From Candidatus Heimdallarchaeota archaeon B3_Heim (GTDB lineage: Archaea; Asgardarchaeota; Heimdallarchaeia; Hodarchaeales; Hodarchaeaceae), in assembly GCA_003144275.1 (NCBI GenBank), contig NJBF01000003.1, positions 60,001 through 92,000 of the forward strand: a stretch of 32,000 nt of DNA, in the 5' to 3' direction. Positions 23,017-25,293 of this stretch are shown in pieces. Every line of letters starts with the position of its first letter. Position 1 is the first letter of the stretch. The notes beneath the pieces were generated by a model, which was given only the letters and a program-made list of their open reading frames with translations, was not told the origin of the DNA and searched no databases. The position numbers were made by a program, and so were the translations under genes.

Positions 23017-25293
23017 TTAGCGAAGCGTTTGGGGAAATGAGTAATCTTCTTGTATCAATTTTTCAAACCCGATGAAGTCTACTTGACCCTTTTTCAAAGT
23101 AGATTCAGCACTCTTAACATCAAAATCTCCATGCAATATCAAAGGTAAGTCAGGTACAGTCTGTTTTACTTGTTCGATGAGTAGGATCATTTTATCATCA
23201 GGTTTCCTGCTTTCAGGAAAACCTATGCTTAAGAGGTCAATTCCAGCATTCTTAAACGAAGAAATGGCAGTTAATAACTCGGAGTTACTCATTCCTGAAA
23301 AAGGCATAGTAAAGTGAAATGAAAACATAATCTCTCTTGGTAAATGCACTTTAATAGCTTTTATAATCTCCAAAGGGAATCTTAATCTATTATTAAATGA
23401 ACCACCATATTCATCAGGTCGTTGGTTTATGTGTGGAGAAAGAAACTGGCCAATTAAGCTTGAATGATTCACTGGGTGAATACAAGCAGATATTTCTAGA
23501 ATATCGAACCCTATTAAGGATGCACGTATTGCTGCGAGTCTGTAATCTTCAATTACATTTTGTATTTCTTTTTTTGTAAGTGCTCGTGGAGTTTCAGAGT
23601 CAATAACAGGTACTTTCCAAGGTGTTAGGGGATCCTCATTTGTTAGAAAACTTGGGGCTGCGCCCCCTGCATGTCGAATTCTAATTCCAGCTAAAGCTTC
23701 TTTCTCGTGAATCTGTTCTACAACCTTGTTCATTCTCGGAATGACATATTCTTCATGAATCCCTACTTGGTTGCTATGTTTTCTTCCTGAATTGCTGATG
23801 AATGCAGGTTCAAGATAAACCAAGCCTGCTCCTCCTTCCGCAGTTTTAGAATAATAGGAAATTCCTGATTGGGTTAATTGACCTGAAAAATCGGCTATTT
23901 CCAGGTCATCAGTCATCGTTATTGAAGGGAGAACAACTCTATTTCGAGTCTTGAGCTTCCCAATGTGATATTCATGAGTAAGAACTGATTCTTTTGGTAC
24001 TCGATGACGGATTGATAAGAGCATCAGTGTGGCAATTGTGTAAAGGGTTGCAGTAAACAGAAAAACATAGATAAACCCATAAGAATCAACTATTAATCCT
24101 CCAAAGCTTGCGGATACAGACCAGAACATTCCCCATGCTAAAGTTTCAAGGGAATTCCATTTGGCTCTGTTTGAAACTGGAACTACATCCATTACAATGG
24201 AACGAGAGATAGGACCACTAGCGTTCATCAGGGCATTTCGGGAAATGTAAAAGACAATTAATAGCCCAACTGAAAATTCAAACGATATGATAAAATTTTG
24301 ATAAAGCAGAAGATTAACTACTAAACCTAATAAACACACAATAGCAAGACCCTGGACCAAAAACATTGATATTATTCTTCCAAAGATGGAGATCATTCTT
24401 TGGGCAAACAATCCCATAAACCCAGATACCACATTGGTAATCCCGAAAACAACGTATGTGGTCGTAGGGCGTATTCCGTACTCTAGTGCAAAAAGCACAG
24501 GAAAGAATGCAACTGTTGCACCTGCTCCGAAACCTATAATGATACCGGAAATAACGATCGTTGCTGGGATTATCAAATCATACTGGGGTTTGCGAATTTT
24601 TTTGTTAAGGATTGAATAATAATCCTCTGTAGTACTTAACACATCTTCCTTACTCGCTTTTACAGGTGAAGAATCGATTTTTTTCTTTTTGATGGAAACC
24701 AGTGCCTTATCATCTGAAACAAACAATACAGCAAGATATGATGCAGCTGCAGCCGCAATTCCTACAAAGAGGATAGGACGAAGCATCTCCACCTCCCAAC
24801 TATCCCCATATAATAGCGAAAGTCCAGCTGCTAGAAAAGGACCTATTGCAGCTGCAATTAAATTTGTGAAGTGCATAGTGGCAAAGACTTTACTCCTATT
24901 CCCAGATTCTATACTGTCAGCTAATAGTGCCTGTGCTGCTGGTCCAGATAGTCCCCATCCTAATCCTCCACACGCTTGAGATATGAAAAATAAATTTAAA
25001 ACAGAATCTGAAGGAGGAAGGTTAATCGCGTAGAACAGAATAATTTGCGCTAATAGTCCAAAGATTACTGAAAATCGAACTAAAGTATCCCTTCGGTATC
25101 GGTCTGCGATCCAGCCACTAGGAAATACAAAGATCGTTGAAGCTAATCCACTCACTGTGAAAAGATTACCAAGTACTACATTAGGTTGACCTAAACCGTC
25201 CGTCACATAAACAGCAAAGGCTGTTTGTACAATCCCAAATCCAATTGCAGCTGCGACAGTTTGTATGTAAGCTAATCTAACATTCCAGTTCAA
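23017..25293 (-). CDS. MFS transporter fused to a C-terminal Old Yellow Enzyme (NADH:flavin oxidoreductase)-like TIM barrel
   Basis: aa ~1-430 are a 12-TM MFS (GWIADRYRR motif A). aa ~440-758 contain KTRNRVVLP, AEGGAGLVYLE, HAGG, AAIRASLIGFDILEI and QFLSPHINQRPDEYGGSFNNRLRFPLEII. It is a single uninterrupted ORF. Confidence 0.92.
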   Translation of the reverse strand: MNWNVRLAYIQTVAAAIGFGIVQTAFAVYVTDGLGQPNVVLGNLFTVSGLASTIFVFPSGWIADRYRRDTLVRFSVIFGLLAQIILFYAINLPPSDSVLNLFFISQACGGLGWGLSGPAAQALLADSIESGNRSKVFATMHFTNLIAAAIGPFLAAGLSLLYGDSWEVEMLRPILFVGIAAAAASYLAVLFVSDDKALVSIKKKKIDSSPVKASKEDVLSTTEDYYSILNKKIRKPQYDLIIPATIVISGIIIGFGAGATVAFFPVLFALEYGIRPTTTYVVFGITNVVSGFMGLFAQRMISIFGRIISMFLVQGLAIVCLLGLVVNLLLYQNFIISFEFSVGLLIVFYISRNALMNASGPISRSIVMDVVPVSNRAKWNSLETLAWGMFWSVSASFGGLIVDSYGFIYVFLFTATLYTIATLMLLSIRHRVPKESVLTHEYHIGKLKTRNRVVLPSITMTDDLEIADFSGQLTQSGISYYSKTAEGGAGLVYLEPAFISNSGRKHSNQVGIHEEYVIPRMNKVVEQIHEKEALAGIRIRHAGGAAPSFLTNEDPLTPWKVPVIDSETPRALTKKEIQNVIEDYRLAAIRASLIGFDILEISACIHPVNHSSLIGQFLSPHINQRPDEYGGSFNNRLRFPLEIIKAIKVHLPREIMFSFHFTMPFSGMSNSELLTAISSFKNAGIDLLSIGFPESRKPDDKMILLIEQVKQTVPDLPLILHGDFDVKSAESTLKKGQVDFIGFEKLIQEDYSFPQTLR

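Follow-up and report, generated by a model that had tools for sequence, protein, structure and literature searches.

Few flavoenzymes and biocatalysts have been studied as much as the Old Yellow Enzymes (OYEs), and a functional member is recognised by a small set of residues: a His-x-x-His/Asn pair past strand β4 that binds the activating group of the substrate, a Tyr proton donor two residues past the second His, a β3 Gln that contacts flavin N3/O2, a β5 Arg that contacts N1/O2 (R243 in OYE1) and a Gly-Arg pair past β8 that binds the phosphate of flavin mononucleotide (FMN). Carriers of the major facilitator superfamily (MFS) with fused cytoplasmic domains are also known, such as the SPX-MFS phosphate carriers and the LplT-Aas fusions. 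Here we describe a gene that joins an MFS carrier to an OYE-fold barrel in Candidatus Heimdallarchaeota archaeon B3_Heim. It occupies positions 23017..25293 on the minus strand of a 32,000-nucleotide stretch of contig NJBF01000003.1 (hereafter the window). This fusion is no artefact: it is inherited across one Asgard clade of Hodarchaeales type, and its barrel lacks the residues listed above. From the sequence comparisons we lean towards reading the barrel as a flavin-free, non-catalytic accessory module that is rigidly coupled to the last transmembrane (TM) helix by a 13-residue junction and whose role is probably in regulation or ligand binding, or otherwise in assembly. An initial annotation, made from the letters of the window, had been aware of no described MFS-OYE fusion, and we likewise found no characterised or described counterpart: neither an MFS-OYE fusion nor an OYE pseudo-enzyme was described in any paper that a literature search retrieved, a protein atlas feature search returned generic MFS clusters only, and a study of the Asgard transportome does not mention the fusion (PMC7997004).

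A two-domain gene inherited across one Asgard clade

The gene comprises 758 codons and a stop, with a TTG start, as defined by its translation, by two Pfam domains and by alignment of 36 full-length orthologues. The clean 758-aa open reading frame (ORF) of the initial annotation, with its MFS and OYE parts, was recovered as a single minus-strand frame carrying both domains. The N-terminal part (aa 1-431; 24001..25293, minus strand) is an MFS transporter domain with 12 predicted TM helices (6+6), running in the AlphaFold2 model from H3-33 to H407-428; Pfam MFS_1 matched aa 10-330 and a second stretch (E 1e-38; 134 bits against a cut-off of 33). The C-terminal part (aa 432-758; 23020..24000, minus strand) is a complete OYE-fold (β/α)8 barrel according to Pfam, a PDB profile, a structural model and Foldseek. 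Oxidored_FMN (PF00724) matched aa 443-755 over profile positions 7-333 of 342 (E 1e-40; 140 bits against a cut-off of 27), and both domains exceeded the Pfam gathering scores. Similarity to NCBIfam models was sub-threshold only, to NamA, FadH-type and BaiCD-type barrels and to carriers of the drug:H+ antiporter (DHA) type. The AlphaFold2 model of the whole protein (mean predicted local distance difference test score, pLDDT, 77.9) shows 6+6 TM helices, a central loop that is Lys-rich and disordered and, from aa ~442, a β/α barrel of eight strands. The last TM helix is connected to the first barrel hairpin by 13 residues, RHRVPKESVLTHE (23971..24009, minus strand), whose V-P-x-E-S motif is invariant or almost so across 36/36 fusions. 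A complex prediction of the MFS domain against the OYE domain, both supplied as alignments, scored 0.01, which is evidence neither way.

A search of 5.8 billion proteins identified about 40 full-length two-domain orthologues of 737-780 aa with 51-96% identity. All of them came from Asgard metagenome-assembled genomes named Hodarchaeales, Hodarchaeota, Ca. Hodarchaeum mangrovi, Heimdallarchaeota or similar. When 400 Asgard genomes were searched in six frames, a full-length match in a single frame was obtained from 14 of the 21 genomes of one genus-level group (g1/f1), which takes in the genome of the window, and from none of the remaining 379, where only unfused MFS relatives (35-40% identity) or ordinary OYE/FadH-type genes were retrieved. 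The 14 include two closed chromosomes (CP070695.1 and CP070760.1), which carry the fusion at the same locus.

Because the window belongs to a 103-contig draft genome, we considered an error of assembly or gene calling that had joined two neighbouring genes. However, the same frame is found in 14 genomes, closed chromosomes included, and no stop or frameshift interrupts the barrel in 36 divergent copies. The junction at nt ~24000 is moreover crossed at 95-99% identity by contigs of four public metagenome runs (X1-X4) from three studies, which supports the junction that the initial annotation had wanted confirmed; one metagenome contig of 4.4 kb covers 22700-25333. The probability left to an artefact is negligible, and we regard it as excluded.

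Catalytic and flavin-contacting positions of the barrel

A profile of the domain matched YqjM (PDB 1z41) at E 5e-43. Modelled alone, the barrel reached a pLDDT of 81 and a predicted template-modelling score (pTM) of 0.86, and Foldseek aligned it to TsER, XenA and YqjM with template-modelling (TM) scores of 0.81-0.85. By fold and profile the barrel is a member of the OYE family, yet it departs from functional OYEs at every diagnostic residue. This was seen in a comparison of the 36 full-length fusions with the 131 nearest canonical OYE domains from a representative library of 1.84 billion proteins.

At the end of β3, the flavin-contacting Gln of 92% of the canonical domains (Q102 in YqjM) is replaced by Arg538 (23680..23682; this and all further residues of the fusion are on the minus strand), an Arg in 35/36 fusions (0.97 of the family). 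The β4 His (85% of canonical domains) has become Ser602 (0.86 of the family; Ser in 31/36, Ala in 4/36) and is followed, in the former catalytic loop (aa 600-620; 23434..23496), by an insertion of five residues in the window protein and three to five across the family, variable in both length and sequence. The second His (84%) falls within this inserted loop at a variable position of the fusions, and the Tyr donor (85%) is Asp in 23/36, Asn in 8/36 and Ser in 4/36, including Ser612 of the window protein. In β5, the Arg that contacts flavin N1/O2 (92%; R215 in YqjM) gives way to Tyr in half of the family (18/36), His in 14/36 and Ser in 2/36. The window protein has His660 here (23314..23316) in a register uncertain by two positions, and no Arg or Lys occurs anywhere in the strand among nine family members displayed. 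Past β8, the Gly and Arg of 117/131 and 121/131 canonical domains correspond in the 36 fusions to Gly (19), Glu (13) or Ser (4) and to Arg (14), Lys (11) or Gln (6), respectively, with Glu744-Lys745 (23059..23064) replacing the phosphate-binding pair in the window protein. Two further positions have changed: Pro496 at the end of β2 (23806..23808), at the place of YqjM Ala60 and of His or Ala in canonical relatives, is invariant in the family, and in G722-D723-F724 past β7 (23122..23130; canonical G-G/x-I) the Ile has become Phe724, which is Phe in 35/36.

Much of this had been read correctly from the window alone. The β4 motif quoted in the initial annotation is present as written (aa 595-620; nt 23434-23511), and alignment with canonical OYEs bore out its claims of a five-residue insertion, no His-x-x-His/Asn and no Tyr in either register. 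Its reading of GFEK at the phosphate-binding motif is right for the window protein but describes a subclade state rather than the whole family. Similarly, of the change it saw in RIRHAGG, the Gln-to-Arg replacement is real but the final Gly is no remodelling, because the nearest canonical OYE subclass also reads HAGG. A Q-x-G-I-H-D-D stretch that we considered as a further change was rejected, being normal in that same subclass. The replacements of the β5 Arg by Tyr or His, of the β2 Ala or His by Pro496 and of Ile by Phe724 go beyond what had been noted.

The fusion family retains the structural motifs of the fold, namely NR in β1, AGFD-x-x-E, N-x-R-x-D-x-Y-G-G and H-A-G. Residues that are invariant specifically in the family are mainly Pro, Gly, Leu and Tyr, together with the linker, and the 36 versus 131 comparison revealed no new conserved polar constellation in the fused barrel. 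Relative to the canonical enzymes, the family is most constrained in the N-terminal hairpin and linker, in β2 and β3, and in the β2-α2 and β7-α7 loops; β4-α4 is the sole loop in which it is no more constrained than they are.

Because every residue that the OYE class needs has been lost, the barrel is most likely non-catalytic. The opposing explanation is a transport-coupled enzyme, a barrel whose pocket, though rearranged, would still hold flavin or another cofactor, Arg538 standing in for the β5 Arg. On the cytoplasmic side it would convert the compound being transported, for instance reducing it as it enters or ahead of its export. Arg538, Pro496, Ser602 and Phe724 are newly fixed at pocket positions and an Arg past β8 is kept in 14/36 fusions, as this explanation would lead one to expect. 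However, replacements affect all five of the canonical positions that are catalytic or contact the isoalloxazine, the putative substrate-binding loop varies in length and sequence, the phosphate site of the window protein reads Glu-Lys, and the polar constellation that a new active site might show is missing. We consider such an enzyme unlikely, and the transport-coupled reductase with new chemistry that the initial annotation had offered is a weaker alternative to its other suggestion, a pseudo-enzyme. The latter label is fair: the His, His and Tyr and most flavin contacts are gone in every member while purifying selection persists.

Origin, selection and secondary loss

In the representative library, the fusion cluster scored 479 bits and the next full-length proteins about 200 bits. 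The fusion family is monophyletic, and its stem, at 0.87 substitutions per site, is exceeded in length by only one of the 165 internal branches. Its sister group consists of stand-alone bacterial OYE-like proteins of about 324 aa, forming at least 207 clusters with the names SAR324, Lambdaproteobacteria or Deltaproteobacteria. The two were united in one clade with a Shimodaira-Hasegawa-like approximate likelihood ratio test (SH-aLRT) value of 98.3 under LG+C20; this grouping may reflect long-branch attraction or convergence, as both are long-branched and the fused barrel is only about 35% identical to the SAR324-type proteins. The SAR324-type proteins have Arg at the β3 position in 118/121, lack the β5 Arg and the His pair, and carry Asp and Lys/Arg past β8. 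The fused barrel shows the features of the 'Arg-type' OYE-like clade, a grouping that we propose here. The bacterial proteins also have a tightly conserved set of their own (N602, Q610, N723 and D744), which is lost or relaxed in the fused barrel.

The SAR324-type proteins merit a note in their own right. Their members (P0234, P0137 and P0254-P0372, at loci L015 and L016) are annotated just as NADH:flavin oxidoreductase and have no specific NCBIfam model, and in place of the canonical Gln/His/His/Arg/Gly-Arg they carry Arg, Asn, Gln, a hydrophobic residue and Asp-Lys. The family probably represents an uncharacterised activity of the OYE fold.

Since these relatives share the Gln-to-Arg replacement and the missing β5 Arg, part of the remodelling probably predates the fusion, and since they stand alone, the remodelled site is not unique to the fusion. 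No SAR-type stand-alone protein was found in the 400 Asgard genomes. A search for a stand-alone copy of the fused-type barrel gave two candidates, and both were rejected (P0103 is a chimeric fragment and P0104 a canonical tandem OYE). The only other OYE of the genome (L005:1501-2523, on G000:C47) is a canonical stand-alone protein of 340 aa with an intact His-x-x-His-Gly-Tyr motif, a Cys-rich C-x-x-C-x-x-C tail and a Lys at the β5 Arg position, with a transposase-like ORF upstream. It is only 24% identical to the fused barrel, and a recent duplication of this gene was rejected as the source of the barrel on that ground. The simplest reading of the sequences is that the barrel probably goes back to an OYE-like lineage that was no longer canonical, with transfer from bacteria as a possible route. 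It would then have been fused to a resident Asgard MFS carrier at the base of the g1-type clade, after which the former substrate loop would have lost its constraint.

The ratio of non-synonymous to synonymous substitution rates (dN/dS; Nei-Gojobori), taken against a 96%-identical orthologue (G063) at dS ~0.13, was 0.082 for the MFS domain and 0.222 for the barrel, and mean pairwise identity among the 36 intact copies was 0.69 and 0.53, respectively. Both measures indicate that the barrel is under purifying selection, less tight than that on its carrier. With some 40 orthologues and this ratio, the possibility raised in the initial annotation that the fusion might be unique to one assembly, with relaxed selection on the OYE part, does not apply. 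Purifying selection on the barrel is also a point in favour of the transport-coupled enzyme, as is the strongly conserved alternative site of its bacterial sister family.

Some members of the clade have, at the same syntenic locus, a carrier of 445-472 aa that ends where the barrel would start. In the MFS-domain tree, a group of these MFS-only proteins (P0046-P0053) is nested inside the fused clade (node SH-aLRT 96), and the tree forces at least three state changes; the barrel was therefore lost secondarily at least once, and one or two further losses are probable. No fused-type barrel was found elsewhere in the MFS-only genomes, which are 84-89% complete, at E <= 1e-30. The barrel-less lineages carry directly downstream of the carrier (L007:6638-7843 and L008:6572-7759) a polytopic membrane protein of about 400 aa that occurs clade-wide, lacks a Pfam match and has a CxxC...CxxC zinc ribbon at its C-terminus. 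It was rejected as a replacement for the barrel, as the gene is also present elsewhere in fusion-bearing genomes, including that of the window (G000:C66:1724-2926).

These losses bring in a further explanation, that the barrel is a functionless passenger: the dead enzyme part of an old fusion, drifting towards loss and kept only because a truncation would seldom leave folding of the carrier unharmed. The barrel indeed evolves faster than the MFS domain by both measures above, it has been lost in P0046-P0053 and probably once or twice more, its former active-site loop is hypervariable, and one metagenomic copy is split. This copy, on a 167-kb contig (L009:3210-5449), is called as two ORFs of 228 and 482 aa that divide inside the MFS part, and it represents a frameshift, a sequencing error or a pseudogene. 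However, with a dN/dS of 0.22 the barrel is far from evolving neutrally, 36 divergent copies have stayed open throughout the barrel, the linker is invariant, and the barrel strands, the N-terminal hairpin and the β2-α2 and β7-α7 loops are strongly conserved. A mere passenger is accordingly very unlikely.

The syntenic locus has a divergent cyclophilin gene upstream, and genes for a nitroreductase, a PALP enzyme, a BadF/G-type ATPase and two roadblock-type proteins convergent downstream. In the window, the convergent operon (18119-22823, plus strand) encodes proteins of 127 and 652 aa without a Pfam match, a BadF/BadG/BcrA/BcrD-type ATPase, a PLP-dependent (PALP) enzyme and a nitroreductase, and synteny of this operon is seen in several clade genomes (L001, L003, L004, L007, L008 and L010). 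On the other side, a Ras/Roc/Arf-like small GTPase gene of a kind typical of Asgard genomes (27175-27813, minus strand; Pfam Ras, E 1.5e-41) is syntenic with flavodoxin-like and cyclophilin genes in L007 and L008. That the FMN-type neighbours (nitroreductase and flavodoxin-like) are syntenic at most loci could speak for a transport-coupled enzyme, but the redox genes nearby are part of a different, convergent operon and are unchanged where the barrel is lost, and the barrel itself is dispensable in one subclade. A functional link of the fusion to the nitroreductase/PALP/BadFG/roadblock operon is unsupported for the same reasons: the operon is convergent, and lineages that lost the barrel still show its synteny. 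Elsewhere, on one metagenomic contig (L010:1970-5598), a 764-aa fusion gene lies convergent to an unfused MFS paralogue of 426 aa with 51% identity, an arrangement that shows local duplication of the carrier.

The carrier, the role of the barrel and known systems

The assignment of the carrier to the MFS agrees with its profile match, its 12 TM helices in two six-helix halves and motif A (GWIADRYRRD; 25087..25116, minus strand) between TM2 and TM3, in which D64, R67, R68 and D69 are invariant. A sequence search for relatives of the MFS part with solved structures returned none at E <= 0.001. The predicted cytoplasmic loops contain 15 Lys and Arg residues and the outside loops one. Together with the helix count, the position of motif A and the established topology of the MFS, this places the barrel in the cytoplasm, as the initial annotation had assumed. 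The central cytoplasmic loop between TM6 and TM7 (aa 196-240; 24574..24708, minus strand) is Lys-rich, poorly conserved and modelled with low confidence. Carriers of the DHA or EntS-like type are defined by motif C (G-x8-G-x3-G-P-x2-G-G) in TM5 and by a match to a subfamily model. The corresponding stretch here, AAAIGPFLAAGL (24820..24855, minus strand), has invariant G151 and P152 and is a partial motif C only (A-I-G-P-F-L-A-A-G), and the matches to TIGR00900, TIGR00880 and PF05977 are weak and far under their cut-offs. From the motif-C-like G-P and this profile similarity, the carrier may be an MFS protein of the antiporter or exporter type.

Taken together, the gene product would be a clade-specific MFS secondary transporter whose cytoplasmic C-terminus runs through a short invariant linker into a former OYE TIM barrel. 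The barrel would bind no FMN and carry out no ene-reduction, and it would modulate a possibly export-type carrier, most likely through regulation or ligand binding and alternatively through oligomerisation or docking of a partner. Several points weigh against this non-catalytic accessory module. The near-invariant Arg538 could assume the charge role of the lost β5 Arg, and about 40% of the family retain Gly-Arg past β8, so that the barrel may bind flavin in an altered manner or bind another cofactor. The conserved motif set of the bacterial sister family looks like a working site, and the fused barrel may retain part of that activity. Finally, the dN/dS of the barrel derives from one pair of genes, with 24 synonymous and 20 non-synonymous changes.

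In a more specific form, the barrel would be a true pseudo-enzyme sensor, free of flavin, that binds a cytoplasmic metabolite or a reporter of redox state and gates the carrier allosterically through the rigid linker to TM12. The suggestion of the initial annotation that the domain senses flavin, NAD(P)H or substrate, or gates the carrier, gained no support: the former active-site loop is the least constrained of the domain, the invariant residues specific to the family are mostly Pro, Gly, Leu and Tyr, with no new polar constellation, and one subclade does without the domain. Such a sensor is possible, though we would not expect it. The OYE fold also occurs in another putative signalling context, in Bacteroidota proteins of about 780 aa that carry FIST_N/FIST_C sensor domains together with an OYE barrel.

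The fusion, though real and undescribed, is not revolutionary, and it opens no long-standing question by itself. A selected member of the OYE fold without catalytic or flavin-contacting residues, alongside a bacterial sister family with its own set, points to uses of this barrel outside ene-reduction. As a soluble domain the fused barrel should be expressible, which could make it a tractable target. Students of transporters would gain in it a cytoplasmic appendage of a kind new to MFS carriers. Among the Asgard archaea it is an innovation that defines a clade of Hodarchaeales type and a possible marker, in a host clade that is often placed closest to eukaryotes.

The thermophilic-like, YqjM-type OYEs (YqjM, TsER and XenA; PDB 1z41, 3hf3 and 5nux) share the fold and clear homology with the fused barrel. 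Unlike YqjM, the fused barrel has no equivalents of Q102, H164, H167, Y169 and R215 and only partly keeps R308; it also differs from this type in the three- to five-residue insertion in the β4 loop and in its attachment to a transporter, and flavin binding is unlikely. It resembles the SAR324-type proteins in the β3 Arg, in the absence of the β5 Arg and the His pair, and in an acidic residue plus Lys/Arg past β8, whereas those proteins are soluble, bacterial and stand-alone and have their own Asn/Gln/Asn/Asp set.

On the carrier side, the unfused Asgard MFS proteins (35-40% identity, 420-450 aa) and P0046-P0053 are orthologous or paralogous carriers with the same 12-TM architecture, motif A and C-terminal tail up to 'P-x-E' but no barrel, and some genomes hold an unfused paralogue and the fusion side by side. 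The SPX-MFS and LplT-Aas proteins likewise combine an MFS carrier with a soluble regulatory or enzymatic domain, although their domains are different ones, and no paper was found that reports an OYE-fold partner. In a structure search, a few AlphaFold DB cluster models of 650-910 aa, among them A0A366QGF3, V5G559, A0A4Q6EPC9 and A0A1Z5SM17, aligned across both the MFS and OYE parts at 13-16% identity. They may be independent MFS-OYE fusions or fused gene models, and the bare combination of the two domains may on this account occur independently elsewhere.

A functional analogy is provided by the Kv-beta subunits, aldo-keto-reductase TIM barrels that are docked under voltage-gated K+ channels and act as modulators rather than metabolic enzymes. 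As in the fusion, a TIM barrel of oxidoreductase fold lies on the cytoplasmic face of a transport protein. However, Kv-beta belongs to another barrel family, binds non-covalently, keeps NADPH and sits on a channel rather than a carrier, and no homology is implied. The Kv-beta family has been mentioned for Asgard genomes (PMC7997004). If the sensor reading is true, the fusion would be a covalent archaeal counterpart of the Kv-beta principle and the first regulatory use of the OYE fold.

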